Below, in pieces: positions 7,954 through 59,381 of a stretch of DNA of 64,000 bases (positions are counted from its first letter, which is position 1; every line of letters starts with the position of its first letter). The notes below the pieces were generated by a model, which saw only the letters and a list, made by a program, of their open reading frames with translations, was not told the DNA's origin and made no database searches. The stretch covers positions 3,732-67,731 of the forward strand of contig CAMVLZ010000004.1 in assembly GCA_947168485.1 (NCBI GenBank), given 5' to 3'. A program made the position numbers and the translations under genes. The DNA comes from an uncultured Bacillota bacterium (GTDB lineage Bacteria > Bacillota_I > Bacilli_A > RF39 > UBA660).

Positions 7954-8755
7954 ATAATACTTCCTCTTCTCCATAATCATATTCATTATTATTTTTAGGT
8001 TTCAATTCATCAATAAGTAACATTCTTAAATCATCTAAACTTAAATCGTATAGCATTTCTCCTTTTAAACAAATACTAATATTACCAGTTTCTTCACTTA
8101 CTACTACATTAATCGCATCAGTTTCTTCACTTAATCCTAAAGCTGCTCTATGTCTAGTACCTAAATTTCTATCTATCTTAGTACTATTACTTGTAGGGAA
8201 AACAGCTCCTGCACATATAATTCTATTTCCTTGAATGATAACTCCACCATCATGTAATGGATTACCCTCATAGAATATCGCAACTAATAAGTCGCTAGAT
8301 AAATCTGCATAAACTTTTTTAGCTTTATCTATATAATTACCTAAACTAACATCTCTTTCTAAAACAATTAAAGCTCCAATCTTTTCTTTAGACATATAAT
8401 CACAAGCACTAACTATTTCATAAACTAATCTTTCTCTTTCATCAACAGTTAATATTTTATGTTTACCTAAGAATTGACTTCTACCTAATTGCTCTAAAAT
8501 ATTTCTAATTTCTGGTTGAAAGATAATAATTAAAGCTAAAGGTCCCCATTCTATAATATATTCTAATAATACTCTAACAGTAACTAAACTTAAAAATCTA
8601 CTAATTACATTCAATATTATTATAAATACAACACCCTTAAATATAAGTGCTAATTTAACATTATTTTTAATATTCTTTAATATATAATAAAATATTGCCC
8701 ATACAATAAAAATATCCAATAAATTTCTAATTATGGACATCACATTAATCGTCAA
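7937..8755 (-). CDS. cdaA: diadenylate cyclase (c-di-AMP synthase), membrane bound
   Basis: Three N-terminal TMs and DAC-domain motifs DGGVIIQGNRIICAGAVFP and LGTRHRAALGLSE. Start uncertain: TTG 8755 lies 8 nt after AAGGAG, while ATG 8740 lacks an SD. Confidence 0.88.
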   Translation of the reverse strand: MTINVMSIIRNLLDIFIVWAIFYYILKNIKNNVKLALIFKGVVFIIILNVISRFLSLVTVRVLLEYIIEWGPLALIIIFQPEIRNILEQLGRSQFLGKHKILTVDERERLVYEIVSACDYMSKEKIGALIVLERDVSLGNYIDKAKKVYADLSSDLLVAIFYEGNPLHDGGVIIQGNRIICAGAVFPTSNSTKIDRNLGTRHRAALGLSEETDAINVVVSEETGNISICLKGEMLYDLSLDDLRMLLIDELKPKNNNEYDYGEEEVLYEEEK

Positions 8756-8862: not shown

Positions 8863-11145
8863 TAATACTTTATTATCCTCTTCAACTCTACCTTTAATCT
8901 TAAAATAAGTATTACGATTATCTATTTTATCTAAATGTTCTCTTAAGTATTTTTCATAATCCTCTCTATCTTCTTCACTATGATGTAGTGGTAAAACATC
9001 ACTATTTTCCAACACTTCTAGGATTAATCTATCTCCAAAATGATAACTCTCATCACCATCACTAAATGTATAAGTATAATCATCAAAATAAGTATTTTTA
9101 TCTTTAAAACGAACATTTCCTTCCATAAAATTATCTAATCTAATTCTTAATCCTTTATCACTCATTTCAATGACACTACCAACAAACTCTTCTCCAACAT
9201 AATCTTGCAAATAAGAAGCACAATTCTTATCAAAAACAGCTCTTTCTACATCAGCAGCATCTCTTTCCTTCTTAGAAGTATGATTTCCTATTTCTAATAA
9301 ATCAGATACAGTAGTTTTCTTACCATGTTTTTCACCCAAAGTAGTTTCCTTAAGAATTCTATGTATAACTAAATCAGGATATCTTCTAATAGGAGAAGTA
9401 AAATGACAATAATAATCTTTTCCCAATCCATAATGACCAATATTATTAGGAGAATATTTAGCTTTAGCCATACTTCTAATTAATCTAGAAGATAATATAT
9501 CACTTAAATTACCAGTACTAGCAACATAATTAGCTAATTGTTGCATATACTTAGGATTACTAACACAATCATTAGCATCTAACATATTAAAACTAAAACC
9601 AACAATATTTAGTAATTTAATAAGATCATTTACTTTCTCTTCATTAGGACTACCATGTACTCTATGTAAACAAGGATAACCATATCTAGATAAATGTCTA
9701 TCAACAGTTTCATTAGCAATAACCATAAACTCTTCAATTAAATTTTCAGCATAATCATTTACTCTTTCACGAGCACCAATCATCATACCATCTTCATCAT
9801 AAACTTCTTCTTTATCACCAACACCAAATTCAATAGAACCTTCTTTTATTCTTTTCTTTCTTAATATTAAAGCTAATTGATTCATTAAATTTAATGTCTT
9901 AGTAAATTCTTTATATTCAGGATCTATATTATTATTTTTCAAAATATCATTAACTTTATCATAACTCATCTTTAAATCAGAATTAATAACAGAATTAACA
10001 ATAGTATAATTACAAACATTACCCTTATTATCAATTTCCATTGAACAAGTAACTGCTAAACGATCAACATTAGGGTTTAATGAACAAATACCATTTGATA
10101 ACTCATGAGGTAACATTGGAATAACTTTATTACCTGCATAAGTACTAGTACTCTTACGATATGCATCTATATCTAATGGAGAATTTTTTGAGATATAATG
10201 AGATACATCAGCTATATGAACTCTTAACATAAAATTACCATTATTAAGACGACAACAACTAATTGCATCATCCATATCTTTAGTATTAACACCATCTATA
10301 GTAAAAGTCTCCATATCTGTAAAATCACTTCTACCTATTCTATCACTAGGTAAAACTTCAGCAGGAGTCCAATCTACTTGTCTCCAAGAATCATCACTAA
10401 AATCATTATCCATACCGTATTTTAAAGCTTCCCAAAAGATATCAACACCAGGTTCATCTTTATGTTTTAACTTTTCAACTGAAGTAACTCTATAATAATC
10501 AGCAGAATCAGTATCAGTATGATTTACTTTAGCTTTAACTCTACTACCTTCAACAATCTTATTAGATAGAACCATTTCACTATCTAAAGAAACAAATAAA
10601 TCCTTATACTTCTTATTAACAGGTTTAACATAATAACCATAATTTCTATCTCTATATACTTCTCCATATATAGTATCTATTTTATTATCAAGAATCTTAT
10701 AAATCTTAATAGAAGCATTCTTTCCATCACCAGTAACGTCTACTAAAACAAAATCCCCATCATGAGCGCCATTAAAATATTCACTTCGAACAATATAATC
10801 TTCTTTTTGAGAAATAACTTCACCATCTTTTATATAAGAAGTATCCTCAGTAACTACACCATTACCATTTCTTAATAGATTAAAAGTTCCTTTATGAAAA
10901 GAAGTATTTTTAATATACTTATAACCTTTACCTACTTCTAAAAAGTCATAACTAGCAATATAATCATCAATAATATTATTAATAGCAATTAATGATTCTT
11001 TACTAAAAGAAACTTCTTCATCATATTTCTTAGAAACTCTATTTCTAGTCTTCTCAATTATCTCATCTCTAGTTAATGCCCTTTTACTCTTTTTTACTAC
11101 TTTTAAAATATCTTCTTCAATATCAACTAAATACTTGTTCTTCAT
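8854..11145 (-). CDS. RNase II/R-family 3'-5' exoribonuclease (paralog 1)
   Basis: RNB-domain motifs FTIDGVNTKDMDDAIS, HIADVSHYI, LPHELSNGICSLNP, HFTSPIRRYPDL. C-terminal S1-like GEEFVGSVIEMSDKGLRIRL. Confidence 0.85.
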   Translation of the reverse strand: MKNKYLVDIEEDILKVVKKSKRALTRDEIIEKTRNRVSKKYDEEVSFSKESLIAINNIIDDYIASYDFLEVGKGYKYIKNTSFHKGTFNLLRNGNGVVTEDTSYIKDGEVISQKEDYIVRSEYFNGAHDGDFVLVDVTGDGKNASIKIYKILDNKIDTIYGEVYRDRNYGYYVKPVNKKYKDLFVSLDSEMVLSNKIVEGSRVKAKVNHTDTDSADYYRVTSVEKLKHKDEPGVDIFWEALKYGMDNDFSDDSWRQVDWTPAEVLPSDRIGRSDFTDMETFTIDGVNTKDMDDAISCCRLNNGNFMLRVHIADVSHYISKNSPLDIDAYRKSTSTYAGNKVIPMLPHELSNGICSLNPNVDRLAVTCSMEIDNKGNVCNYTIVNSVINSDLKMSYDKVNDILKNNNIDPEYKEFTKTLNLMNQLALILRKKRIKEGSIEFGVGDKEEVYDEDGMMIGARERVNDYAENLIEEFMVIANETVDRHLSRYGYPCLHRVHGSPNEEKVNDLIKLLNIVGFSFNMLDANDCVSNPKYMQQLANYVASTGNLSDILSSRLIRSMAKAKYSPNNIGHYGLGKDYYCHFTSPIRRYPDLVIHRILKETTLGEKHGKKTTVSDLLEIGNHTSKKERDAADVERAVFDKNCASYLQDYVGEEFVGSVIEMSDKGLRIRLDNFMEGNVRFKDKNTYFDDYTYTFSDGDESYHFGDRLILEVLENSDVLPLHHSEEDREDYEKYLREHLDKIDNRNTYFKIKGRVEEDNKVLKK

Positions 11146-16152: not shown

Positions 16153-16529
16153 GGGGATGACTAGGTTTCGACGGGAATATTAGAGCATAGATCGCAAGTC
16201 GGAGGAACACGTCACGAACACAAGCAATAAATGCTAACAAAGTTAAAACTGCATTTGCAAACATGTTTGGTGGAAGCCAAGCATATGCAATGGCCTAATT
16301 AATATAAAGGCATGCACTCTACCTATTATTACCTAAGTAATAGAATAGGGTTCGTTTTATTAGGTTATAGCTATTATTTGTCTAGATAATAGAAAGAATT
16401 TTTAGACTGGTATAACTATTTGGTCGTTAACTACTTGATAGTTATATGAGATTAATTAGTTAACTAAACTTGTAGAAGTTTATGTAGCTAGATTTTCGGA
16501 CAGGAGTTCGATTCTCCTCATCTCCACCA
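16153..16529 (+). ncRNA. ssrA: tmRNA (transfer-messenger RNA)
   Basis: 5' GGGGATGACTAGGTTTCGACGGG and 3' GGACAGGAGTTCGATTCTCCTCATCTCCACCA form the tRNA-Ala-like domain. Internal tag frame GCT AAC AAA ... GCA ATG GCC TAA (16233-16298) predicts ANKVKTAFANMFGGSQAYAMA. Confidence 0.93.
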
Positions 16530-16540
16530 ATAATAAAAAC

Positions 16541-16569
16541 AAAGTCAAATTATTTTGACTTTTTATTTT
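16541..16569 (+). terminator. intrinsic terminator of ssrA
   Basis: AAAGTCAAA-TTAT-TTTGACTTT followed by TATTTT. Confidence 0.6.
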
Positions 16570-16651
16570 GCAAAAAACAGGAATTCCTTCTATCATCTTA
16601 TTAATTTCAATCATAAGTATAATCAGTGGAACATACTTTTATAAACTAAAC

Positions 16652-16681
16652 AAAAAAGAACATAGTAATTTATGTTCTTTT
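16652..16681. repeat. copy 1 of 30-nt terminator-hairpin repeat
   Basis: aaaaaagaacatagtaatttatgttctttt. Identical to 17783-17812 except for one loop base. It overlaps the stop of ORF 16680..17186. Confidence 0.8.
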
Positions 16682-17186
16682 AACTACAAATTCTATCTAA
16701 GTATTTATTAAAACGATTTAAAAATTCGCCATCATAACCAGATCCAGCTGTTAATACTTTAAACTTATTATTAACTTTAATAGCTAAAGTTCCAAACTCA
16801 TAATTTGGGTATTTAGTTTTATCTAATTCACCTTTAAGATAAAGATAGTATTTATTATCTGATACACCTGTAATTTTAATAGAATCTTTTACAATATCTT
16901 CTTTATTAAATCCAGCATTTAAATTATCTAAAGATTCAATTATTTCATTCTTATCTTTATCTGTTAGAACATAAGATAAATCTAATTTAGAAAAAGGACA
17001 TTCTCCACTAGATTCATAATTTAAAGCGTTATCTTCAAGATTATTTTCAACTTTATTCACTTCATTTGTTTCTTTTTCAGGATTTTTATTATTAATAGAT
17101 TTATTACAACAAATATAACCAACTAGCAATAATATAATAACTAATAATAAAATAATAACTATAATTGAATAATTTCTATTTTTCAT
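16680..17186 (-). CDS. hypothetical membrane-anchored or lipoprotein-like protein
   Basis: N-terminal hydrophobic segment ending LLLVGYICCNKS. No recognisable domain. Confidence 0.55.
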   Translation of the reverse strand: MKNRNYSIIVIILLLVIILLLVGYICCNKSINNKNPEKETNEVNKVENNLEDNALNYESSGECPFSKLDLSYVLTDKDKNEIIESLDNLNAGFNKEDIVKDSIKITGVSDNKYYLYLKGELDKTKYPNYEFGTLAIKVNNKFKVLTAGSGYDGEFLNRFNKYLDRICS

Positions 17187-17279
17187 ATATTCTACCTTCT
17201 TTTATTTAGTATAACATATTATTATTTACAATATACAATATTAATATAATTTTATATAATATAGTTAATTGGAGGATAT

Positions 17280-17783
17280 ATGAAAAAATATGACTGTAAA
17301 GTAATATTATGTGGTCCAGCTATTGGTAAAACATATTTAGCTGAACATGATTCTAATTTTATTGATATTGATGGAACAGTATCTAAATATAAATATAATT
17401 TGAATAATCAAGACTTTGAAAAAGGTAAATTAAATAGAGGAGAAATCATTAATAAAGATTATAAAGAATACGGAATAAATCTATTAAATAAAACAATAAA
17501 TGAAGGTAAAATAGCTCTAATATCATATCATGAGTATATATTAGATTATTTAATTGAAAATAATATTGATTATTGCCTTGTATATACAGATATCAATTTA
17601 AGAGAAGAATATATTAATAGAATGAGAAATAGAGGTAATTCTGAAGAATTTATATATGAAATGACTAATGAAGAAGCATGGAATAATTTCCATATAAAAG
17701 ATAAAAATGATACTAAACCAAAATATAAAATTATATTAAAAAAAGGACAATATTTATCTGATATAAAACAATTATTTAAATAA
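17280..17783 (+). CDS. hypothetical small P-loop-like (kinase-like) protein
   Basis: GGAGG RBS and N-terminal ILCGPAIGKTYLAE (imperfect Walker A). Confidence 0.5.
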   Translation: MKKYDCKVILCGPAIGKTYLAEHDSNFIDIDGTVSKYKYNLNNQDFEKGKLNRGEIINKDYKEYGINLLNKTINEGKIALISYHEYILDYLIENNIDYCLVYTDINLREEYINRMRNRGNSEEFIYEMTNEEAWNNFHIKDKNDTKPKYKIILKKGQYLSDIKQLFK

Positions 17784-42817: not shown

Positions 42818-43417
42818 TCACCCCGCAATATTTTTTTTCGAACACTTCAATATGAAGAATCCTTTTTCTTTCTTTAAAACATCTACATCGTACTTTAAAC
42901 TTAAATCTCTAATAACAGACTTAGCTCCTTGCTGCTTCCTAATTACTAAAAATAGTTTCCCATTATCTTCCAAGTAATCGTTCGCATTCATTAACATATC
43001 ATATACTACAGATTTACCAGCTCTAATTGGTGGATTAGTAATAATACTAGAATATTTATCAGTAACATTAGAATAAACATTACTTTCAAATACATTAATA
43101 TTATGACATTTATTAAGATCACTATTCATTTTAGCCAAATGAACAGCTCTTAAATTAACATCAACTAAATCACAAGAACAATCATGAACTTTGTTTAAAA
43201 CAATACCAATGACACCATAACCACATCCCAAATCAAGAATTTTGCCTCCAACTTCGTCAAGCGGAATGCTCTCAAGAAGAAGTCTACTGCCAAAATCCAA
43301 ACCGTACTTAGAAAAAACGCCATTGTCTGTATTAAAAGTGAATTTTTGTCCTCTTACAAAACAACTAGTCTTTTTAATATTACTTACTAACTTTTCATTA
43401 GTAAAATATTGTCCCAT
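42818..43417 (-). CDS. class I SAM-dependent methyltransferase (RsmC/YbxB-like small-domain MTase)
   Basis: [12 protein letters not shown] (SAM motif I) and [11 protein letters not shown] (NPPxxxG). Same position as Bacillus ybxB upstream of rpoB. Start at ATG 43417 (MGQYFTNE) behind AGAGGGGA. Confidence 0.8.
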
Positions 43418-43430
43418 TAAATCCCCTCTT

Positions 43431-43479
43431 TTAAACAAAAAGAAGGAGAAAACTATCATAATAAAGTCTAGTTTTCTCC
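43431..43479 (-). promoter_or_regulatory. terminator-like hairpin (possible attenuator) in the 5' leader of methyltransferase-rpoB-rpoC
   Basis: Reverse strand GGAGAAAACTA-13 nt loop-TAGTTTTCTCC followed by TTCTTTTTGTTT, between the promoter and the RBS. Confidence 0.5.
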
Positions 43480-43494
43480 CTTTCAAACACATAT

Positions 43495-43541: not shown

Positions 43542-43575
43542 TAAAAAAAAACAGAACGGTAATCGGTCCGCCTGT
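43542..43575 (-). terminator. intrinsic terminator of the orphan ncRNA
   Basis: Reverse strand ACAGGCGG-ACCGATTA-CCGTTCTGT (GC-containing stem) followed by nine T. Confidence 0.65.
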
Positions 43576-43953
43576 AAAAAAACATCATACTAGGAATAAA
43601 TATTAAATCATTTAACCAAAAACGTAGCATTTTTTCTCGGAGTCCACGTAAGATTAGCTAAATCTTAACCCTCCCGAGTTTTACGGATTACAACACTTAG
43701 TAATCGCATGAGTCCTCTCTCATAATTCAAATATTCTTAGAATCGTACGTCTCTCTTCTATTAGACATTGTTTGCTAACAGAACGCAATGATCATTGACT
43801 GACTACCGATATACTCGTCATTAAGCACCAGGCATGCTACCTTATATATAAAATATAAGCTAATAGGCGCCAAATCGAGACACCAAGAATATTCTACTAA
43901 ATTGTACAAAGATAAGATCAATCAAGTAAACTCAATCTCTCTTTATCTTATAC
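43543..43953 (-). ncRNA. orphan structured RNA of about 400 nt, class unknown
   Basis: Lies between its own promoter (43958-43985) and terminator (43542-43575). No ORF longer than about 13 codons. Locally GC-enriched, for example 25 G+C in the 60 nt at 43621-43680 against a very AT-rich background. Many short hairpins: GCUUAUAUA/UAUAUAAG, CAUUG...CAAUG, AUGAG/CUCAU, GAUUAC/GUAAUC, CUCGG...CCGAG enclosing UAAGAUU/AAUCUUA. Confidence 0.55.
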
Positions 43954-43957
43954 ATTG

Positions 43958-43985
43958 ATTATAGCACACTAAATTATAAAGTCAA
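43958..43985 (-). promoter_or_regulatory. extended -10 promoter of the orphan ncRNA
   Basis: Reverse strand TTGACT, 16 nt spacer ending in TGC, TATAAT. Confidence 0.55.
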
Positions 43986-43989
43986 TAAC

Positions 43990-44025
43990 CTAAAATAAAA
44001 AAGTTGTCTATAATAAGACAACTTT
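43990..44025 (-). terminator. intrinsic terminator of the T7SS-like module
   Basis: Reverse strand AAAGTTGTCT-TATTAT-AGACAACTTT followed by TTTATTTT. The stem contains the last codons and stop of the esaB-like gene. Confidence 0.6.
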
Positions 44026-44256
44026 ACACCCATTCTTTAAACCAGATAATCTAACTAGGTTATTATTGTTGATAACATTACCATCTATATTGATTAAATA
44101 AGCATTATCATGCTTTACATAATTATTACTTGACATCTCTATTAAAGTATTTTGAATCATATCAAGTACATCTACTACCTTTACATTAATAGGTAATAAT
44201 AGATCATATGATTCATCTAAAGATAAAACATAAATTGTAACAAGTATATTAGTCAT
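44008..44256 (-). CDS. esaB: EsaB/YukD-like ubiquitin-fold protein of type VIIb secretion systems
   Basis: 82 aa with an SYDLLLPINVKVVDVLDMI core and a C-terminal LSGLKNGCKVVLL. This is the same pattern as S. aureus EsaB and B. subtilis YukD. Located 8 nt downstream of essC. Confidence 0.75.
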   Translation of the reverse strand: MTNILVTIYVLSLDESYDLLLPINVKVVDVLDMIQNTLIEMSSNNYVKHDNAYLINIDGNVINNNNLVRLSGLKNGCKVVLL

Positions 44257-44264
44257 ATAACCTC

Positions 44265-47200
44265 CTATATAGTTGGGAACCTAATAAATAAAGGTTCAGA
44301 ATCAACAACATTAACGACCATTTCGTTACTTGGATTAACTGGATTATCAGAATAAGATATAGATTGCATATCAAGAGCTGATTGAGAATCATAATCTACA
44401 CCAATCCAAATACCATTTGAATTATCTATTAAATTAGAAATATTAGAATTCAATAATTTAGAATAAGACTCCTCTTTTTCAAATAATACAAATTTAAAAT
44501 TATTATTAGAACAATCTAGTATTAAATCATCTAATGTATGAATAGAATCATCCTTAGCTTTAGCTTTAGTTAAATAATTATTAATAGCACTATAACCTAA
44601 TACTAAAATAACAAAAGACTTTTCAGAAGGATTTTCATTTAGTTTTAGACAATTATCATAAAGTAAATTATTTACTTTCTCAAAATCAGATTCATATATC
44701 TTTGCTTTCTCATCTAATTTATAATTAATACCCTTCTTACCATTAAGTATAATTAAATTAGTATTTTCACAACTACAAATAATCTTACTAAAGTAACTAA
44801 CAAATTTACCAATATTAGCAACTTCTGCTGCGGCTAATAATGATATTTTCTTATTAAAGTCAAAATATTGTTGTTGAGCAGTAACTAAGTTTACACCTAA
44901 AGGAATATTATTTAATGTATTAGCCTTAGATGTATAAGATTCAATAGATAATTTCCTTGGTACATCAGGTACTTCAGGAGCTTTTATTGGATTAGATTTA
45001 TCTAATTCAGTAAATAATGAATCTAAATATTCTTTCTTAGAAGATTCTTCACAAATTAGTGCAGTCTGATACTCAACAGGTACACCTTCATTTAATATAA
45101 CTCCACGTCCAGGATTTCCTGCAGGAGCTTTTCCTCCTTTAAATATATATGAATAAGTTGATTCATCACTTAATTGTAATAAAACATATTGTTTAAAACT
45201 ATTATCTACACTTGATGGAACTCCATCAGGGGAAGAAACAGCAATAACAAATTCAATACCAAATTTAGAACAATTTCTAAGTATAGGAACAAATAAATCA
45301 TCAAATAATTCATCAAAGTTTTCTTTGAAGACTTCAAATCCATACATATAAACAATTATATTAGGAAAAGCACAATTTCCAGTACTAACATCAGTTTGAT
45401 AATCTCCACCATGTTCAGAATAATATTTCTTTCTCTTATTCAATTCAGTTTCAATCATATAGAAGAAATAACTAATCTTATTTTTATCATCAATACTTAG
45501 AACATCACCTATATGAGGAGCTTTTTTATAATTAATAAATTGTACAGTTCCAAAATCTAAAATATAAATGTTTAACTCATCACTAGTATGTCTAATTATT
45601 GAAGAAAATATCATAGTTGAGAACAAAGTAGCTTTACCAGAACCAGGATTACCCATAATTACAGTATTACCAGCACCAGTAAGCGATAATCTAACAAAAC
45701 CTTGACGTTGATTTTCAGGATCATCATATTCACCAATTAATGGATTAATAACATATTTACTCTCAGGAATATTAGTATATTTATTTAATAAATTTCCATA
45801 GAATAATCTCTTAGGAACATTATCTAACCATAATTGATGATTTTTATATCCTTGAACTTCAGCAACATCAACTATATATTTCATTACATTTGTTAATTCT
45901 TCTCCTAAATCTTGAGAAACTTGAACATTATTATCTTTTTTAACAACATTTCTATAAGTATCACCAGTATCATCAATAAAGTATATAGAATCATCAGTAT
46001 TTGTAGTAACCATTTCAGATGGAACATAAGGAATACCAGAATATCCTGATTGTCCTAAAACATAATATTCATCATATCCAACTTGTAAATAAAATCTACC
46101 AGCTTCTTTAATATAAGCAGCATCAGGTTTTCTTAACATTTCATTACTATCATCTGCTGTTTGTACTTTACAACAAACTTTAAATTTAGCATTTGACCAA
46201 ATTTGATCATCTACAACACCACTAGGTTTTTGTGTAGCAAGAATCAAGTGAATACCTAAAGATCTACCAATACGAGCAGCAGATACTAACTCATCCATAA
46301 AATCAGGTTGTTGAGCTTTTAACTCAGCGAACTCATCACAAATTATAAATAAATGAGACATAGGCTCATCTAAAGAACCATCCCTTACATACATTTGATA
46401 TTTATAAATATCGATAGACCCTGTATTTAATTTTTCTTTAGCAGCATTAAATGCTTTTTGTCTTCTTTGCAACTCACTCTTAATTGAAACTAAAGTACGA
46501 TTCATTTCAGCTTTATCTAAGTTAGTAATAGTACCAACCAAATGAGGTAATTTAATACCAGTCTTTCTATTTTCAAAAGCACCAGCTAAACCTCCACCTT
46601 TATAATCAATAAGAACAAATTGTACTTCATCAGGACTATAATTAATAGCTAAAGATAAAATATAACTAACAATAAACTCAGATTTACCAGAACCAGTCAT
46701 ACCAGCAATCAAACCATGTGGACCATGTTTCTTTTCATGCAAATCTAAATTTAAAATATTACCATTCGCATCAATACCAATAGGAGTAGCTAAAGTACTA
46801 GATATAGGAGCAGTCTTCCATCTCTCAACTATATTTAATTGCTCTATCTTACCTACACCAAACATCTCTAAGAAACCAAACTTACTTGGTAAAGAAGCAT
46901 TTGAAGTATCATCAGGTTCAACCTTAACAGGTATATTTGCTAATCTTTCAACATCTCTATAAAAGTTAACTGTTGTATCAATCTTGTTAGGTTTAAACTT
47001 AACAATATTTTTCTCATCCATTTCAGAATTAAAGAAAGTACATTCATTATCAGAATAATTAATAAAGTAATTACAACCAGTAGGTATATTATTAACCTTA
47101 TTAGTAAATAACAATAAACTAATAAACATAGTTTCTTGATCAGTTGCACTACGTAAAACATAATCAATAATTTTTAAACTCTTATAATACTCAATACAAT

Positions 47201-48851
47201 CTGAAATAATAACATAATAAGTATCAATACCCTTTTTATTATCAGAACTATTAACTTTATTAATAATTTTCATTAACTCATTAGAAACAGATTCAGCTTC
47301 ATTTAAGTTAGTAGCAAAAAATCTAAAAGTTCTACTATTATTCCAACAATGATTTAAATTCTTAATATGATTTAAATTAGAATTTGGATTAGTCAAAACA
47401 ACAAATTTCAAACTTCCATAATCATGTAAACAAGATAATTGCAATAAAATAGAATTTAAATAATTAGAATAATTACCAGTAGCATCAATAACAGCTAAAC
47501 TCTTATTCTTAAGTGAAAAAGTAAATGAAGAATCATCAATAAATTCATATTTTTTTATTAATGCATCAATATCATCATATAACTTATCATTTTGTACTAT
47601 AAAATCAGGTTTAGAATATTCAACTTCTATAGAAGACTTTACTCTACCAGATCCACATAAGAACCTTAAAAATGAATCAGATTCAATATTTCTAGAAAAT
47701 AGATTTGCATTCTTACTTACAATAGCATCTTCACAATCATTTAATGATATATTATTAAATTTTAAAACATTCTTTTCTTCAACAATTACCGCTTCAAACT
47801 CTTTATCTTTTCGTTTTAAATATCTTTTATAATTAAAGACCCTCATACGATTATTAAAGAATCTTTTTAATTTAGCAGCATAATGTTCTATTATAGGCCA
47901 CAAGATACTTGTAACTAATAAAATAGCAAACATAACAATTCCAGTTATTAATGACTCTTTATTAGAAGCTATAGTATCAGCAGAAGCCCCAGCAGTATTT
48001 CTCTTATAACTAGCAAATGAAAAGTATAAAGTAACAAATGATGATAATCCCATCAAAGCAGAAGGAACAATTTGAGATAATATATTAGAATCAGTATTTT
48101 TTTCTTTTGCATCAGGTGGTGTAATAACTGCTTTATAAGTATCATATTTTTTCTTAAATATCGGAGACTTATAAAAATAATCATACATTGTATATAACTC
48201 TTTAGCAGACTCTGTTATAGGATTATCCGCTACAACTAATTCAAATTTAGTATTTACTAAAATATCACCAGTTCTAATATTTTCAATTGGTCCAACAATA
48301 AATATTTTATTACCAACAAAAGTAAGTTTAACTCCCATTAAAAACACACTATCAAAACTAGAAAGTATAACATTCTCTTCTCTCTTCTTATTTACATATA
48401 TAGGAACTTTATTATCTAAATTAGATAAATTCCAAACACCGTTATTAAAATCTAATTTAATTTGTTTATCAGAGATTCTAGGATTATTGTAAACCAAATT
48501 ACAATCATTACCTTTACCAACAATTATACTAGAACCATTAGCAACCTCTTTCATTAAAGGTTTATCAATAAAACCAGGAAATACATATAAAATAATATAC
48601 TCACTATTATGATAATTCAAAGTATAAAATTCATAAGGAATAACTTCAACTTTATCTAAATAAGATCCATTATACATAATAGAAACATCACTATTAGAAT
48701 TAAAGTACCACTTATCATCCTCAGAAGATATATTAATTAAACTTCTTGATTTATTATCTACGTCTAAATCACTTAACATATAACTACCAGAAAAATTCTT
48801 AGGTAATCTAAACGTGTTAATATTATTTAAATGAATGATATATATTAACAT
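44265..48851 (-). CDS. essC: EssC/YukB-like FtsK-SpoIIIE-family T7SS ATPase
   Basis: 1528 aa. N-terminal FHA-like repeats (IIVGKGNDCNLVYNNPRISDKQIKL), two TMs, ATPase 1 with LIAGMTGSGKSEF and FIICDEFAELK, ATPase 2 with VIMGNPGSGKATL, and a degenerate third domain. Confidence 0.9.
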   Translation of the reverse strand: MLIYIIHLNNINTFRLPKNFSGSYMLSDLDVDNKSRSLINISSEDDKWYFNSNSDVSIMYNGSYLDKVEVIPYEFYTLNYHNSEYIILYVFPGFIDKPLMKEVANGSSIIVGKGNDCNLVYNNPRISDKQIKLDFNNGVWNLSNLDNKVPIYVNKKREENVILSSFDSVFLMGVKLTFVGNKIFIVGPIENIRTGDILVNTKFELVVADNPITESAKELYTMYDYFYKSPIFKKKYDTYKAVITPPDAKEKNTDSNILSQIVPSALMGLSSFVTLYFSFASYKRNTAGASADTIASNKESLITGIVMFAILLVTSILWPIIEHYAAKLKRFFNNRMRVFNYKRYLKRKDKEFEAVIVEEKNVLKFNNISLNDCEDAIVSKNANLFSRNIESDSFLRFLCGSGRVKSSIEVEYSKPDFIVQNDKLYDDIDALIKKYEFIDDSSFTFSLKNKSLAVIDATGNYSNYLNSILLQLSCLHDYGSLKFVVLTNPNSNLNHIKNLNHCWNNSRTFRFFATNLNEAESVSNELMKIINKVNSSDNKKGIDTYYVIISDCIEYYKSLKIIDYVLRSATDQETMFISLLLFTNKVNNIPTGCNYFINYSDNECTFFNSEMDEKNIVKFKPNKIDTTVNFYRDVERLANIPVKVEPDDTSNASLPSKFGFLEMFGVGKIEQLNIVERWKTAPISSTLATPIGIDANGNILNLDLHEKKHGPHGLIAGMTGSGKSEFIVSYILSLAINYSPDEVQFVLIDYKGGGLAGAFENRKTGIKLPHLVGTITNLDKAEMNRTLVSIKSELQRRQKAFNAAKEKLNTGSIDIYKYQMYVRDGSLDEPMSHLFIICDEFAELKAQQPDFMDELVSAARIGRSLGIHLILATQKPSGVVDDQIWSNAKFKVCCKVQTADDSNEMLRKPDAAYIKEAGRFYLQVGYDEYYVLGQSGYSGIPYVPSEMVTTNTDDSIYFIDDTGDTYRNVVKKDNNVQVSQDLGEELTNVMKYIVDVAEVQGYKNHQLWLDNVPKRLFYGNLLNKYTNIPESKYVINPLIGEYDDPENQRQGFVRLSLTGAGNTVIMGNPGSGKATLFSTMIFSSIIRHTSDELNIYILDFGTVQFINYKKAPHIGDVLSIDDKNKISYFFYMIETELNKRKKYYSEHGGDYQTDVSTGNCAFPNIIVYMYGFEVFKENFDELFDDLFVPILRNCSKFGIEFVIAVSSPDGVPSSVDNSFKQYVLLQLSDESTYSYIFKGGKAPAGNPGRGVILNEGVPVEYQTALICEESSKKEYLDSLFTELDKSNPIKAPEVPDVPRKLSIESYTSKANTLNNIPLGVNLVTAQQQYFDFNKKISLLAAAEVANIGKFVSYFSKIICSCENTNLIILNGKKGINYKLDEKAKIYESDFEKVNNLLYDNCLKLNENPSEKSFVILVLGYSAINNYLTKAKAKDDSIHTLDDLILDCSNNNFKFVLFEKEESYSKLLNSNISNLIDNSNGIWIGVDYDSQSALDMQSISYSDNPVNPSNEMVVNVVDSEPLFIRFPTI

Positions 48852-48882
48852 ATCTCCAACTCCTTATTCTCTCTATTATATT

Positions 48883-48891
48883 TATTATATC
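48883..48891 (-). promoter_or_regulatory. possible internal extended -10 promoter for essC
   Basis: Reverse strand TGATATAAT, about 30 nt upstream of the essC RBS. No good -35. Confidence 0.3.
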
Positions 48892-48905
48892 ACTATATTT
48901 TTCTA

Positions 48906-48936
48906 TATAAAAGAAAAAAGATGATATTCATCATCT
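48906..48936 (-). terminator. weak intrinsic terminator or attenuator between small T7SS genes and essC
   Basis: Reverse strand AAGATGAT-GAAT-ATCATCTT followed by TTTTCTTTT, 3 nt after the stop of the acidic protein gene. Confidence 0.4.
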
Positions 48937-48939
48937 TAA

Positions 48940-49275
48940 TTATTCAAACATATTATTTAAATTATCCAACTCATCTGAAGTAATAGAATCAGCAGGATTT
49001 TGCACTTCAGGTTCAGGCATACCAGCCTCAGTATCTGAAACTGCAGTATAATCTACCTCTTCTTCATCAGAATCGTCATATAATTCTTCGTCTTCATCAT
49101 CTTCTTCAGTACCATCAACTAAATCTTCTTCATCATCTGCTTCAGTTAACACATCTGCTTCTTCTTCAGTAGGAGTATCAACATCATGATTAAGTCTAGC
49201 AGCGATTTGTTTAATTTCTTCTGGCATTGAATCAGTTATAACAATATGTCCATCTTGGTCTAAATTAGCAGGCAA
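48940..49275 (-). CDS. small highly acidic (D/E-rich) protein of the T7SS-like module
   Basis: TTG start 6 nt after AGGAGGTG, which overlaps the stop of the WXG gene. Short N-terminal ordered-looking segment, then a long D/E tract (TEEEADVLTEADDEEDLVDGTEEDDEDEELYDDSDEEE). Confidence 0.65.
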   Translation of the reverse strand: MPANLDQDGHIVITDSMPEEIKQIAARLNHDVDTPTEEEADVLTEADDEEDLVDGTEEDDEDEELYDDSDEEEVDYTAVSDTEAGMPEPEVQNPADSITSDELDNLNNMFE

Positions 49276-49287
49276 CTAAAACACCTC

Positions 49288-49596
49288 CTATTTTCCAAAA
49301 TATCCTTTTTGACTTAATGTTATATATCTATTATATAACTTATTCCAAGCTTGGCATGCTTCATTGTATGCTTTAATGTTATTATCCATATTACTCTTTG
49401 CACTATTAAAGTATCTTAATGCTTGAGGTCCGTTCCAATATGGATCTTCTCCATCACCTTTCATTAGTGAATTAAGAGTAGTATTTAAACCTTTTAAAGC
49501 TTGATAAATATTTTCAATTTCTTTATTTACATTATCACATAACTTAACATATTCATCATTGCTTAATTTTTTCTTTTTATTTTGTGTATTTGCCAT
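49288..49596 (-). CDS. WXG100-family (EsxA-like) small secreted protein
   Basis: 102 aa with two predicted helices and a central YWNGPQA (W-x-G) turn. Located next to essC. Confidence 0.7.
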   Translation of the reverse strand: MANTQNKKKKLSNDEYVKLCDNVNKEIENIYQALKGLNTTLNSLMKGDGEDPYWNGPQALRYFNSAKSNMDNNIKAYNEACQAWNKLYNRYITLSQKGYFGK

Positions 49597-49625
49597 ACAT
49601 TTCTCTCCTCTCTTATTTTATAAAA

Positions 49626-49991
49626 CTATAAATTTTTAAGTATTATATCCATATCTTCTGCATTTTGATATTCTTTTTTACATTGTTCTTTTCTAGAAGA
49701 TGCAGCTGATACTCTACCTTTAGCAGCTTTTTTAGCTTCAGTTAATTCATTTTTAACTTTTGTAGTAGCTAATCCTTTACTATTTAAAGCCTTTTTAAAA
49801 TAAGCCTCTAATCTTTCATTAGCTTTAGCTATTTGATCATAATAACCATTTGCTTTATAAATTTTTCCTAAAAGATCCTTTGCATTATCATGAATAACTA
49901 AATGATTTTTTACAACTGTACTAGGTACAGTAACTGCTAACTTTGCTGCTTGAGCTGTAGAATGTACTAATGTTCTTTTTGGTGTAGCCAT
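49626..49991 (-). CDS. small basic helical protein, first gene of the T7SS-like module
   Basis: ORF 49626..50009. Start placed at ATG 49991 (MATPKR), 8 nt after AAGGAG. Lys/Ala-rich helical sequence with no WXG. Confidence 0.6.
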   Translation of the reverse strand: MATPKRTLVHSTAQAAKLAVTVPSTVVKNHLVIHDNAKDLLGKIYKANGYYDQIAKANERLEAYFKKALNSKGLATTKVKNELTEAKKAAKGRVSAASSRKEQCKKEYQNAEDMDIILKNL

Positions 49992-50022
49992 TTTCATATC
50001 TCCTTTCATATCTTATATAAAA

Positions 50023-50051
50023 AATATAACTCATCTATTAAAATTAGTCAA
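50023..50051 (-). promoter_or_regulatory. sigma-A-type promoter of the T7SS-like module
   Basis: Reverse strand TTGACT, 17 nt spacer, TATATT, directly downstream of the rplL terminator. Confidence 0.55.
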
Positions 50052-50084: not shown

Positions 50085-50117
50085 AAATAAAAAAAGAAGT
50101 TAAAATTATTTAACTTC
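50085..50117 (-). terminator. intrinsic terminator after rplL
   Basis: Reverse strand GAAGTTAAA-TAAT-TTTAACTTC followed by TTTTTTTATTTT. The stem includes the rplL stop. Confidence 0.6.
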
Positions 50118-50480
50118 TACAGTAGCTCCAGCTTCTTCTAGTTTAGCTTTAATTTCTTCACCTTCAGCAGCAGGTATATTTTCTTTAACAACACCCTTAT
50201 TGTCAACGATATCTTTAGATTCTTTTAATCCTAATCCAGTAATTTCTTTAACTACTTTGATTACTTGAACTTTAGCAGCTCCACCATCAGCAATAGCGAT
50301 AGTTACAGTTGAAGGAGCAGCATCTCCAGCTTCAGCTCCACCAGCAACAGGTGCAGCAACAGCTACAGCACTTGGATCAACTCCAAATTCTTCTTTCATT
50401 GCATCTACTAATTCTTTAATTTCTAATAAATTCATTTCTTTTAAACTTTCAATAAAAGTTTCTTTAGTTAATTTAGCCAT
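50106..50480 (-). CDS. rplL: 50S ribosomal protein L7/L12
   Basis: Ala/Gly hinge and C-terminal KVVKEITGLGLKESKDIV. Confidence 0.97.
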   Translation of the reverse strand: MAKLTKETFIESLKEMNLLEIKELVDAMKEEFGVDPSAVAVAAPVAGGAEAGDAAPSTVTIAIADGGAAKVQVIKVVKEITGLGLKESKDIVDNKGVVKENIPAAEGEEIKAKLEEAGATVEVK

Positions 50481-51006: not shown

Positions 51007-51150
51007 AAAACACCTCCTTGTACGAATACCAATAAAAAATCCTTGAGATATGCCCAAGGATCCTAAAAACTTAAAGTTAAGTCCTCGGTAGGATTTACAT
51101 ACCTACTGTCTTTGGCACTCATAAACTGCAATTATTATAACATATTATTA
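51007..51150 (-). promoter_or_regulatory. rplJ (L10) leader with attenuator hairpin
   Basis: The 144-nt rplA-rplJ spacer is GC-enriched. It contains GTAGG...CCTAC and ATCCTTGGGCATATCTCAAGGAT followed by TTTTTATT, consistent with the L10(L12)4-responsive leader known in Bacillota. Confidence 0.5.
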
Positions 51151-53425: not shown

Positions 53426-54097
53426 TTATTTAAGTCCAAAAAAGCAATAAGCTATTAATAAAATAACTCCAAATATTAAAGAAATCATAACAGGATAATA
53501 CATAAATTCTACAAATGCAGCATCTCTACTCTTAATTCTAGATTTACTATAAGTATTAACCATATCTTTAGGATTATCTCCATATATAAGTCTATTATTA
53601 TAATCATTATTAGGTTTAGATAAACTATTAATATCAAACCCCTCAACATCAGAACCCAATTCTTTTAATTTCTTCTTTCTAAGTTCAAAATCAAACTCAT
53701 TAAAATATACAAAAGAACCTCTTTGAACAACCCCTTTAAAATAATTAACATCATCTTTAGGTAAACCAAATTCAAATTCATTAAAATGACTTTTTAGAAA
53801 AGAATCATCCAAATAATCATAATAATCTAAGTATAATCTAACTCCAAATTTACAATAATTATATAAATTATCTTTTAATTTAGAATAATCTTCACTAGCT
53901 TCTAAAGCATTAAATCTAATTTTTCTAATATCGTTATCAACAATACTTATATCTTCAGGATCAAAAGAACTTACAACTACTCCTCTATCATTTAGATAAT
54001 TAAGAGCCATATCACCATATAAATATAAATCCCTTTTTTGATCCATATCAGGATTAGTATCTAACCATTGTCTAAGTGTAATTGTATTTTCTTCCAT
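53426..54097 (-). CDS. hypothetical tail-anchored protein with kinase C-lobe-like degenerate motifs
   Basis: 223 aa with one TM at the extreme C-terminus (YYPVMISLIFGVILLIAYCFFG). ALNYLNDRGVVVSSFDPEDISIVDN...IRFNAL resembles the kinase catalytic-loop/DFG region with the catalytic residues replaced. Confidence 0.55.
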   Translation of the reverse strand: MEENTITLRQWLDTNPDMDQKRDLYLYGDMALNYLNDRGVVVSSFDPEDISIVDNDIRKIRFNALEASEDYSKLKDNLYNYCKFGVRLYLDYYDYLDDSFLKSHFNEFEFGLPKDDVNYFKGVVQRGSFVYFNEFDFELRKKKLKELGSDVEGFDINSLSKPNNDYNNRLIYGDNPKDMVNTYSKSRIKSRDAAFVEFMYYPVMISLIFGVILLIAYCFFGLK

Positions 54098-54149: not shown

Positions 54150-54710
54150 TTACAAAATAGATTTCAATTTTACCCTAATTTTACTTAATCTACCATCAAT
54201 AGTACTAATAGGCATATCTAATAATCTAGATATTTCTTTATAAGAAAAACCATTATATCTTAATTCAAATACAATGGAATTTTTAAAATTAAACAAATTT
54301 TTTAGTTTTACAAAATACTCTTCTTCATCTATATAATTAGATTCTACCTTAGTATAATCATCTAGATTAATATCCAAATTAATAGATAAACTATTATTTA
54401 AAGGACTATGCTTCTTAACACTTATATTTCTACAATAAGAATGAAGATGATTATTTAAACAATGAATAAAATAAGTATAAAAAGAATTATTACAATAATT
54501 ATTATAAGTAGAATACGCCTTATATAAAGAAATATTACCTTCTTGAATTAAATCACAAAATTCAACACCATATTCTCTAGCAAACACATAATATGAAGAA
54601 CACACTCTTTTAATAATAGGTTTATACTTTTTAAACATAATATTAAGAGCATATTCATCATTCTCTCTTATCATATAAATTAGTTCATTATCATTAACTT
54701 TATACTCCAT
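54150..54710 (-). CDS. sigH: sigma-70-family sigma factor, SigH-like by position
   Basis: Region 2 DLIQEGNISLYKA and region 4 HTH YKEISRLLDMPISTIDGRLSKIR. Sits between rlmB and secE as in Bacillus. Confidence 0.75.
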   Translation of the reverse strand: MEYKVNDNELIYMIRENDEYALNIMFKKYKPIIKRVCSSYYVFAREYGVEFCDLIQEGNISLYKAYSTYNNYCNNSFYTYFIHCLNNHLHSYCRNISVKKHSPLNNSLSINLDINLDDYTKVESNYIDEEEYFVKLKNLFNFKNSIVFELRYNGFSYKEISRLLDMPISTIDGRLSKIRVKLKSIL

Positions 54711-57278: not shown

Positions 57279-59381
57279 TTATCCTTTTAATGCAACATAT
57301 ATTAATATAGCAATAAATATTAAAATTAAAGCTACAATTCCTATAATAGTTAAAATCTTAATACTTAAAGCAATCATAACTGCTAATAAAATACCAGCAA
57401 TTAAACCTAATACTCTAATAACCCAATCTTTAGTAATTAAGAAAGCAAATCCAATTACTAATAAACCTACAATAACACCAGTTACAATTGGGTTAGCAAA
57501 TATAAAGATTAATGCAACAAGAACTTCACAAATAAATGCAGCAATTCTCCAGATCCAATCTTTACAATTTAAGAATACTAAGCATAAGAATGCTAAAGCA
57601 ACAATTCCCCAAGTAAATATATTATTCCAGAAGAATACAATTAATAATAATGCAACAAATAATATTAATAAAGTCTTCCAGATACCTTTAAACCATTCTT
57701 TGAATGAAACATTTAAAGTAGCTAATACAATTACTAAGATTAAACTTGTAGGAGCCATTAACATTGATAAACCATACATAGATTGCATTATAACCATAGC
57801 TTGTTCATAAGTTGAATTATCAGTAAATATTGAAGTAAAGTATGGAGTTAAAGCATTAAATACATATGTAGGATCAGAATTGAATAATCCTGCAAACATA
57901 GTAGCTAATGCAGTTAAGATCTTAGCACCAACATTGAAATGTCCATTAGCTAAATCTAACATTGAAGCATAGATTGATAATTGATATCCATGGAAAGTAA
58001 CAATTACTAATCCAACATATACCAAAATAACAATAGCTGCTGGAACCATAGCTTTCTTAGCTCCATTAATAAATCCTTGTACTAAATCTTCAAATCTTAC
58101 TCTATAAACTAAACCTAAGAATAAACAAATGATTACTAGTAATGGAATTAAATCAGTAATAGTCCACAAACCAAATGCATTTGTAGTACCTAAAATCTTA
58201 CCAAATAAAGCAAACTTAAATATTTTAAATTCAGCTAAACTCTTAGTAATCTTATCAAAGAAATCAATTCCTAATGATGTATTCCAAGGAATATAAGCTA
58301 ATACAAATATAATAAGCATTAGTACGAAAGATAAAACAATTGGGAAAGTAGTATGAGTTCCACCTACTCTAGTAGGAACTATATCACAATCACTATTTCC
58401 AAAATCTTCCTTAACAGCTATAACTTCATTTTCCATAGCTAAAGCTTTATTTGAATTTTTGCTTCTTGATTTTGTAGTCTTTTTAGTAGTTTTCTTTGTT
58501 GTCTTTTTAACAGTCTTACTATTATCAACTTCTACTTCTTTAATAATTACAGGAGTATCAGCTGCTTCAATAGTAGTTTTTGCTGCAACACCACCAGTAA
58601 CAGTAGCGCTCTTTTTCATATATCTTAATGTAGCAATTATTAATAAAATAATTCCTAATAATAAGATAGCTGTTCTAGTGCCAATAGCAGTATTAAATGA
58701 AATATCTGCTCCACCACTAGCTAAAGTTTGTACTAAATAAGTAATATTAGTACTAGCAATAGTAGTACCCATAATTCCTACTATAGTTGATCCTGCTAAA
58801 GTTAAAGCAGCAACTACTTTATCATATCCTAATAATAATATGATAGAAGCTAAGAATGGGAAGAAAATTAATAAACCTAATTGCATTCCACATACAGAAG
58901 TAATAACAGCTAATAGAATAATAACTACAGCAACAAATAATTTTTCATTACCTCTTAAAGCTTCAACCATACGATCTAATAAAGTACGATATCCTGGAAT
59001 CATGTGTAAAACTCCATAGAAACCACCAACTACTAATACAAATAATGCAAAAGTACCAAAATATTGGAATGCAGTTGCAAAGTAGTTAGAGAATAGATCG
59101 AATAGACCTACTTGAGAAAATCCTTCTTTAGTAAATTCAGTTTGGAAAGATGCAGCAGGTAAAAACCAACTGAATAAACCTAAATACAATATAGTAAGAA
59201 GTAGTACTCTTAATGCTTTATGTTTGTTACCTTTAGTAAGAGTAAGAACCAAAATAAAGTTTAAGAATAATAATATGAATTTTGCTAATACAAATCTAGA
59301 AGAACTAACACATTCTAAAACTATAACAGCAATAATACTTACTATAGCAAGGATTATTCTTACTATTTTATTCTTTTCCAT
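57279..59381 (-). CDS. polytopic membrane protein, YfcC/DcuC-like permease core with inserted K/T-rich loop and extra C-terminal TM hairpins
   Basis: 700 aa with many TMs. FVLVVGGFYGVLHMIPGY resembles the YfcC-family motif. Central loop KTVKKTTKKTTKKTTKSRSK. Confidence 0.6.
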   Translation of the reverse strand: MEKNKIVRIILAIVSIIAVIVLECVSSSRFVLAKFILLFLNFILVLTLTKGNKHKALRVLLLTILYLGLFSWFLPAASFQTEFTKEGFSQVGLFDLFSNYFATAFQYFGTFALFVLVVGGFYGVLHMIPGYRTLLDRMVEALRGNEKLFVAVVIILLAVITSVCGMQLGLLIFFPFLASIILLLGYDKVVAALTLAGSTIVGIMGTTIASTNITYLVQTLASGGADISFNTAIGTRTAILLLGIILLIIATLRYMKKSATVTGGVAAKTTIEAADTPVIIKEVEVDNSKTVKKTTKKTTKKTTKSRSKNSNKALAMENEVIAVKEDFGNSDCDIVPTRVGGTHTTFPIVLSFVLMLIIFVLAYIPWNTSLGIDFFDKITKSLAEFKIFKFALFGKILGTTNAFGLWTITDLIPLLVIICLFLGLVYRVRFEDLVQGFINGAKKAMVPAAIVILVYVGLVIVTFHGYQLSIYASMLDLANGHFNVGAKILTALATMFAGLFNSDPTYVFNALTPYFTSIFTDNSTYEQAMVIMQSMYGLSMLMAPTSLILVIVLATLNVSFKEWFKGIWKTLLILFVALLLIVFFWNNIFTWGIVALAFLCLVFLNCKDWIWRIAAFICEVLVALIFIFANPIVTGVIVGLLVIGFAFLITKDWVIRVLGLIAGILLAVMIALSIKILTIIGIVALILIFIAILIYVALKG

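Follow-up and report, generated by a model that had tools for sequence, protein, structure and literature searches.

Which components a type VII secretion system (T7SS) needs is an open question, and the systems studied so far have several membrane proteins besides EssC/EccC. The question is raised by a 64,000-nucleotide stretch of DNA from an uncultured Bacillota bacterium (contig CAMVLZ010000004.1; the whole stretch is called the window). In it, the minus-strand gene string rplJ, rplL (50106-50480), small-domain methyltransferase (42818-43492) and rpoB holds five co-directional genes between rplL and the methyltransferase gene, spanning 44008-50009 on the same strand. One of them encodes an EssC-type ATPase, the sole membrane protein encoded in the module. 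Is this a secretion unit in its own right, or one piece of a larger system? We hold, with moderate confidence, that the module is a compact type VII-type secretion unit of six co-inherited parts, in which EssC is the only membrane component encoded. The parts that are inherited together are two helical hairpins, an acidic protein, EssC, a YukD-like protein and a separately transcribed RNA of ~400 nucleotides:

49626-50009, minus strand: basic helical protein, open reading frame of 127 residues, isoelectric point (pI) 9.8; predicted to fold as a long helical hairpin whose turn has a conserved glycine
49288-49596, minus strand: WXG-like protein, 102 residues, pI 9.2, with YWNGPQA at residues 53-59; divergent WXG100/EsxA-type hairpin
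48940-49275, minus strand: acidic protein, 111 residues, 42 of them Asp or Glu (38%), pI 4.1; from the open reading frame and a family alignment
44265-48851, minus strand: EssC-type membrane ATPase, 1528 residues, with an FHA region, two predicted transmembrane helices and FtsK/SpoIIIE ATPase domains (GMTGSGKSE and GNPGSGKAT)
44008-44256, minus strand: YukD/EsaB-like small ubiquitin-fold protein, 82 residues, without a C-terminal Gly-Gly; weak profile match
43545-43951, minus strand: structured non-coding RNA, about 400 nucleotides, with its own promoter and terminator (gene including promoter, 43545-43985)

All five open reading frames were found on the minus strand where a first-pass annotation of the window had placed them, and the motifs it had quoted (YWNGPQA, GMTGSGKSE and GNPGSGKAT) were located in the respective frames.

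Recurrence of the module in related genomes

Relatives were searched as loci with about ±10 kb of readable DNA (L numbers below), and the genome of the window as its 64 kb. The window RpoB is ~83% identical to that of metagenome-assembled genomes (MAGs) labelled uncultured Bacilli, Erysipelotrichaceae or Tenericutes, 'Clostridium sp. CAG:417' and Candidatus Onthousia. More than 25 loci of uncultured gut Bacilli carry the same set of five gene families, arranged in one of two orders. These loci represent at least four genomic contexts, namely the rplL-rpoB junction and three or more further sites. The order basic, WXG-like, acidic, EssC, YukD is seen in the window and in L082, L085, L086, L112 and L113; the order EssC, YukD, basic, WXG-like, acidic in L090, L095 and L022/L103. 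In L085, L086, L001 and others the module lies away from rplL, the sites being beside secA, beside an ABC transporter and beside a bacteriocin exporter with ParAB genes.

In relatives, rplL and the methyltransferase gene are between 16 bases and 3.4 kb apart. An EssC module occupies the junction in the window, L082, L087, L090, L022/L103, L095, L097, L106, L122, L124 and L130, and the junction is empty in L007, L008, L017, L020, L021 and L028. Only a helical plus WXG-like gene pair is present in L003 (7932-8560), L005 (8565-9213), L016 (7900-8554) and L027 (7922-8471), while L015 (165-2172) has several helical or WXG-like genes there without EssC at that place. These EssC-less pairs may be remnants left after EssC loss, or orphan substrates of an EssC encoded elsewhere. 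Unrelated genes fill the junction in L010 (6023-9227), L013 (7547-8930), L014 (7578-9224), L023 (8529-9161), L025 (8510-9148), L026 (2514-4223) and L029 (7252-9199). The junction between rplL and the methyltransferase gene is thus a general variable spot in this clade, of which the EssC module is a frequent and probably old occupant.

The first-pass annotation had described the module as inserted at this site. A recent insertion did not survive the comparison: the EssC module stands at the junction in many species-level sequences, its guanine-plus-cytosine (GC) content (0.26-0.27) is close to that of its surroundings, and a search of its flanks for direct or inverted repeats gave none. Comparing the junction across relatives gave a mixed picture, with an EssC module in many sequences and, in other relatives, an empty junction, gene pairs only or other cargo. 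Because the rplL-rpoB junction is the most frequent site of the module, we regard the module as typical of the lineage and not as recently inserted.

The loci with pairs only show that loss events happen, and the genomes are small and AT-rich; both facts would suit a module that is the decaying remnant of a larger secretion locus and has lost export. Such decay is nevertheless highly improbable, given that the 4.6-kb EssC frame is intact in about 50 clusters of homologues with 40-64% identity to the window protein, keeping the Walker A and B motifs of the first ATPase domain, that the YukD-like proteins are 46-89% identical across the family, that the gene set is kept in two orders, and that promoters and terminators are retained. 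The persistence of intact frames while EssC has diverged to 40-64% identity argues for selection.

Three side observations concern the junction itself. L095 has a second helical plus WXG-like pair after the full module. The unrelated cargo includes a zinc-ribbon polytopic membrane protein (~212 residues), a membrane-anchored protein of ~230 residues, a NUDIX-like protein and a HExxH protein of ~313 residues. In L087, the region from rplL to EssC holds two perfectly complementary inverted repeats of 850 nucleotides (7364-8213 and 9073-9922), 859 nucleotides apart, with a short acidic open reading frame between them and transposase-like fragments farther downstream (16233-17362); either an invertible segment or an assembly artefact could account for the repeats.

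A structured RNA encoded beside the module

The terminator of the YukD-like gene and the promoter of the methyltransferase gene are separated by about 500 bases of non-coding DNA, which include a GC-rich island. The first-pass annotation had let the module end at the YukD-like (esaB) terminator; this boundary has to be moved, since a conserved structured RNA gene directly downstream is to be counted with the unit. Its elements in the window are:

43958-43985, minus strand: RNA gene promoter TTGACT-16-TGcTATAAT, 11/12 matches with an extended -10 box; best promoter match of the region
43705-43899, minus strand: 5' domain, a multi-stem junction closed by a long-range helix
minus strand, 3' domain: helix AAACUCGGGAG...CUCCGAG, then AAAAA and a terminator at 43572-43555

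The region folds better than shuffled sequences (z = -2.9). The stretch after the YukD-like gene can be aligned in L082, L086, L001 and L085 despite their differing genomic contexts, with TTGACA and TGnTATAAT boxes aligned in all four and also present in L122. RNAalifold predicted 44 pairs from five sequences, 22 of the 44 with compensatory changes. Two covariance models, R1 for the 5' domain and R2 built from the hits of R1, together found 17 places in 1.09 Mb, each beside a module and on the module strand. Over 14 distinct sequences, aligned by fitting to the covariance model, pairing holds in 97.3% of cells, and both sides have changed in 24 of the 30 pairs; none of 500 shuffles did as well, and sliding the structure by 1-3 columns lowers the pairing to 34-52%. 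No match to the models was obtained in roughly 30 module-free loci of the same clade. Rfam 15 (4227 families) left 43545-43985 unmatched, both at the gathering score and at E up to 1, and likewise the homologous RNA regions of six loci. Judged by covariation and linkage, the RNA is a well-supported new structured RNA class.

Its position relative to the protein genes varies. The RNA follows the YukD-like gene in several loci, the acidic gene in L090 and L095, and lies between rplL and EssC in L122 and L124; L086 has two tandem copies. Copies in relatives were placed as follows:

L082, 15075-15380
L085, 15005-15329
L086, 15032-15358 and 15455-15656
L001, 5514-5845
L095, 6943-7128
L090, 16507-16689
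L122, 1481-1630
L124, 1900-2045

A leader or riboswitch of the downstream gene was considered and rejected: the downstream genes differ from locus to locus, and the RNA ends in a terminator that is followed by a separate promoter. In L122, for instance, the RNA has its own promoter and terminator, after which comes a distinct promoter for EssC, so the RNA is a transcription unit of its own and not a leader.

Having its own promoter and terminator, varying in position (after YukD, after the acidic gene or before EssC) and being undetected in a number of module loci, the RNA might also be an independent small RNA gene that shares the neighbourhood and has no functional tie to secretion. This is distinctly unlikely. 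Each of the 17 hits in 1.09 Mb directly adjoins a module and shares its strand, with at least four flanking contexts represented, against none in the module-free loci. A scan of 185,579 species genomes with the exact RNA pattern recovered two known module-bearing MAGs and four other matches; the latter fail the covariance model and are chance.

The family of the EssC ATPase also translocates nucleic acids. A bolder proposal, which we rate as very unlikely, would make the RNA a working part of the module: it would form a ribonucleoprotein with the two basic hairpins, the acidic protein would serve as nucleic-acid mimic or release factor, and EssC, as the sole membrane component, would assemble on the complex, be gated by it or export it. 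We found no earlier case of a structured RNA with a genetic tie to a T7SS, and the linkage raises the question of RNA-based control of, or participation in, protein secretion.

OLE RNA and other large structured bacterial non-coding RNAs with genetic links to membrane proteins offer a comparison. Like them, the RNA described here is a multi-stem RNA of several hundred nucleotides with strong covariation and its own promoter, occurs in anaerobic Bacillota and is encoded beside a particular set of genes that includes one for a membrane protein; in contrast, it matches OLE neither in sequence nor in structure, and its partner genes form a secretion ATPase module. Separately, L085 carries the 3' part of an OLE RNA (RF01071, 130 bits) at 1-218, about 9 kb upstream of its module.

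The EssC-type ATPase and the YukD-like protein

The annotation of the large protein as EssC-like with an FHA-like N-terminus was borne out. It scores 860 bits against NCBIfam TIGR03928 (cut-off 778), which identifies it as the membrane ATPase of a T7SS core, and 27.5 bits against FHA (cut-off 20.7); FtsK_SpoIIIE (PF01580) is matched with an E-value of 5e-46. The two transmembrane helices are assigned by reading the sequence alone. The nearest solved relative is YukB of B. subtilis (E 9e-109).

The label "T7SSb-like" fits more loosely. Although the EssC model is passed, identity to the Listeria T7SSb EssC is 27.5%, compared to ~32% for a T7SSe/j-like EssC, and a rough neighbour-joining tree places the window family in a clade of its own, nearer to T7SSe/j-like EssC. 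By these sequence comparisons, EssC is outside the canonical T7SSb clade.

The gene for the YukD-like protein adjoins EssC at every locus. The first-pass assignment to EsaB/YukD is tentative. The window protein itself falls under the Pfam cut-off; in its family, four of 11 aligned members match Pfam YukD (best E-value 2.9e-8), and the family profile finds ubiquitin-like domains in the PDB with E-values of 0.018 and weaker. A phmmer query with Listeria EsaB gave a marginal match (E 0.015). The family was found in 14 species-representative genomes, all of uncultured gut Bacilli. A scan of viral contigs gave no match to it; there is thus no evidence for phage carriage.

The small helical and acidic proteins

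The spacing of an AGGAG sequence and the N-termini of homologues indicate that the basic protein probably starts at the third ATG, at 49991, giving 121 residues. A single-sequence AlphaFold model consists of helices 30-76 and 83-126 joined by a turn at 77-82 (predicted local distance difference test, pLDDT, 65), and Gly79 is invariant in the family alignment. No Pfam or NCBIfam family was matched by the protein, and ten family members were also without a Pfam match; a profile search of the PDB returned designed coiled coils only, which were discarded. The family is basic throughout. Longer relatives have Ala/Pro/Glu-rich or Thr/Pro/Ser-rich extensions (241 residues in L090, 339 in L015), and such low-complexity extensions fit an extracellular destination. 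We propose the basic protein to be the partner of the WXG-like protein and an export substrate.

In the WXG-like family the motif P-[YFL]-W-N-G-x-x-A-x-x-F/Y is conserved. Modelled by AlphaFold from an alignment of 18 sequences (pLDDT 80.6), the window protein has helix 13-45, a turn, the YWNG motif and helix 57-96. An hhalign comparison of the family with Pfam-positive WXG100 proteins gave a probability of 59% (E 9e-5), with WNG over WGG in register, versus 1% for a control family. Two of 16 relatives match Pfam WXG100 (E 0.002), and a PDB profile search with the family found an ESAT-6-like protein at E 0.027, amid coiled-coil noise. For the window protein, which has no Pfam match, the earlier call of a WXG100-like protein leans on two things only, the predicted hairpin that has the WXG motif at its turn and the moderate match between profiles.

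The charge pattern is kept across the families, with both hairpins at pI 9-10 and the acidic protein at 4.1. In the acidic protein, conservation is seen in an N-terminal block, LDxxGHIxIxDSMxxElK, and at the very end of the chain, [DE]-L-[ND]-[ND]-h-F, where the penultimate or last Phe is invariant; we presume that this Phe-ending motif resembles the tail of CFP-10. No Pfam or NCBIfam family was matched. An exhaustive search of 1.84 billion representatives found one homologous cluster, the query being of low complexity. The gene occurs in both gene orders of the module, and we propose its product to be a chaperone or adaptor, or else a co-substrate.

Transcriptional boundaries of the protein-coding operon

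Three signals bound the five genes:

50089-50117, minus strand: rplL intrinsic terminator, an AT-rich 9-bp hairpin holding the rplL stop codon, then a T run; upstream module boundary
50023-50051, minus strand: promoter-like TTGACT-17-TATATT upstream of the first module gene, 10/12 matches
44000-44025, minus strand: intrinsic terminator of the protein-coding operon, a scanner match whose stem-loop includes the TAG stop of the YukD-like gene

The rplL hairpin has fewer than three G-C pairs and was hence not reported by the terminator scanner; it was read in the sequence, and the same hairpin is found 3' of rplL in L122. At the other end, the scan (44025-44000) agrees with the first-pass annotation in placing the esaB stop codon inside the stem. 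The claim that the module has its own promoter is harder to sustain. TTGACT-17-TATATT is present but indistinguishable from background: this AT-rich stretch has 56 promoter-like sites versus 52 ± 7 in shuffles, which is no enrichment, so the support for the promoter is positional.

Search for the missing membrane partners

Neither Pfam searches of ten candidate proteins nor phmmer searches of six-frame open reading frames with Listeria queries found EssB, EssA or EsaA in the 64 kb, in agreement with the first-pass annotation. Extended to 1.12 Mb (the window and 79 loci), phmmer with Listeria EsaA, EssA, EssB and EsxA gave no match, whereas Listeria EssC, as a positive control, found every module there. 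Pfam YukC (EssB) had no match among the window candidates or among neighbours in nine fetched loci, and EsaA/YueB none in the same Pfam and phmmer searches; EssA was not matched by Pfam in the window or by phmmer, at a sensitivity that is low for so small and variable a protein. None of the three lies within 8-10 kb of any module locus.

Two window proteins were tried as candidates and rejected. A membrane protein of 700 residues (57279-59381), considered as EsaA/YueB, is a DcuC-type carrier. A tail-anchored protein of 223 residues (53426-54097, minus strand), considered as a truncated EssB-like pseudokinase, has no Pfam match and is also present in relatives with an empty junction. It sits between a sigma-70-like gene (54150-54710) and secE. 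Relatives keep it at that place whether or not they have the module, and it is more likely to be an anti-sigma factor.

Accessory parts of the subtypes T7SSc-j (membrane Ser/Thr kinase TsxD, PP2C phosphatase TsxF, DUF6382-FHA TsxJ, Ig-rich TsxI, beta-propeller TsgL, EspG-like TsxG and AAA+ TsfV) are absent from the precomputed Pfam hits of neighbours in L082, L085, L086, L087, L089 and L090 and from the window. The search is able to detect them, as the distant loci L091 and L092 show such parts (T7SSe/j-like and T7SSf-like). In L091 (6096-21715), an EssC gene (about 32-34% identity) directly follows a phage-type integrase gene. The locus also encodes two WXG100 proteins that match Pfam, a PP2C phosphatase, a kinase, a DUF6382-FHA protein and a protein of >1800 residues; it is a T7SSe/j-like system on a possible mobile element.

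The first-pass annotation had left the choice between a stripped-down, self-contained apparatus and a split locus. In favour of the former, the unit is compact and its five families recur in several contexts without EssB, EssA or EsaA; the latter still stands as an alternative. Under it, the module would belong to an ordinary system, and other places in the same genome would hold the genes for partners of the EssB, EsaA and EssA types, or for analogues of them (a membrane kinase, for example). We know of no experimentally studied T7SS that does not need further membrane proteins. EssC retains N-terminal FHA domains, which bind EssB in T7SSb, and the partner search reached 64 kb of the window genome and ±10 kb of its relatives, so unlinked membrane partners may exist beyond that reach. 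In B. subtilis, YukD glues YukB to YukC (Oka et al., PMC12637312); in the module, the YukD-like protein is highly conserved though no YukC equivalent was seen. Set against this, the parts of T7SSb and T7SSc-j are clustered in the described systems, over 25 loci in at least four contexts carry the same five families only, nothing related to Listeria EsaA, EssA or EssB occurs in 1.12 Mb, and EssC lies outside the canonical T7SSb clade. A split system is, in our estimation, unlikely.

Besides the possible unlinked partners and the needs of the studied systems, several further points weigh against a compact unit of six parts. The window YukD-like protein reaches 17.9 bits against Pfam YukD (E 0.005, over nearly its full length), under the cut-off of 27. 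Neither helical protein of the window matches Pfam WXG100; the model of the basic protein is of low confidence and too weak for a fold search, and Foldseek, which is uninformative for so simple a fold, found no PDB structure with a significant match to the WXG-like model, only helical ones below significance. The RNA was not detected in module loci L022/L103, L087, L097, L094 and L098-L104, some of these being short contigs. The roles given to the acidic protein and the RNA are drawn from charge, conservation and position, and all module-bearing organisms are uncultured.

Comparison with described type VII systems

With T7SSb (S. aureus, B. subtilis, L. monocytogenes) the module shares an EssC with an N-terminal FHA region, two predicted transmembrane helices and FtsK-type ATPase domains, a putative YukD/EsaB-like protein beside it, and a predicted helical hairpin of ~100 residues with a WXG turn. 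However, the Listeria locus has EsaA, EssA and EssB in a row, whereas module loci are without all three; the T7SSb hairpins are acidic and those of the module basic; and the module adds an acidic protein and a structured RNA and has no adjacent LXG or other large toxin gene.

WXG100, YukD-like and EssC-type proteins (TsxA, TsxB and TsxC) form the near-universal T7SS core, and the subtypes T7SSc-j are set apart by accessory parts, the simplest, T7SSg, having an FHA-less ATPase and the beta-propeller TsgL (Garrett, Higginson & Palmer 2024, PMC11217815). That survey, based on RefSeq, makes no mention of this clade, an acidic component or an RNA. The module resembles T7SSc-j in its core of EssC (TsxC) with putative TsxA and TsxB, in its occurrence in Bacillota and possibly in having its hairpins as a non-identical TsxA pair, as in T7SSe and T7SSg. 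A short component list is shared with T7SSg, but the EssC of the module has FHA domains and no TsgL accompanies it. From T7SSe, f and j it differs by the absence of their DUF6382-FHA, PP2C, kinase, Ig-rich or AAA+ parts. The composition of the module fits none of the described T7SS subtypes.

The pair EsxA/EsxB (ESAT-6/CFP-10, T7SSa) is likewise encoded by adjacent genes for helical hairpins of 100-120 residues with a Gly-containing turn, and presumably in both cases a hydrophobic, Phe-ending motif stands at an extreme C-terminus within the gene set. In EsxA/EsxB there is a C-terminal EccC-binding signal, while in the module the conserved C-terminal tail is on the separate acidic protein and not on a hairpin; both module hairpins, moreover, are basic and outside Pfam WXG100.

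Proposed mode of action

If the module is a compact secretion unit, EssC would oligomerise in the membrane as the only membrane component that the unit encodes, with the YukD-like protein binding to it and stabilising the assembly, a role that YukD has towards YukB in B. subtilis. The first ATPase domain, which is intact, would hydrolyse ATP to power the export of both basic hairpins, probably joined in a dimeric four-helix bundle like that of EsxA/EsxB. In the cytoplasm, the acidic protein would neutralise or chaperone the basic pair, and the ...L-N-x-h-F tail conserved at its C-terminus may serve to dock the complex onto EssC. Most likely, the RNA would be a regulator, or a bound partner, of the module. 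At its usual rplL-rpoB site, the unit would lie behind a weak terminator in a region of strong transcription.

A naturally conserved unit with EssC as its only membrane protein, and so short that a single 6.5-kb fragment would suffice to transfer it, would offer a tractable minimal model in which to study how channels form and substrates are recognised. The module also extends the diversity of T7SS subtypes into a large group of uncultured gut Bacilli, from ruminants, rodents, rabbits, birds and humans.

Other features of the window

On the plus strand, a gene for a thioester-domain/SpaA-fold surface protein is followed by a sortase-like gene (2648-4584), which suggests a small pilin or adhesin locus. 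Two ordinary Rfam matches are a tmRNA gene (16153-16529, plus strand) and the ribosomal protein L10 leader upstream of rplJ (51025-51133, minus strand).

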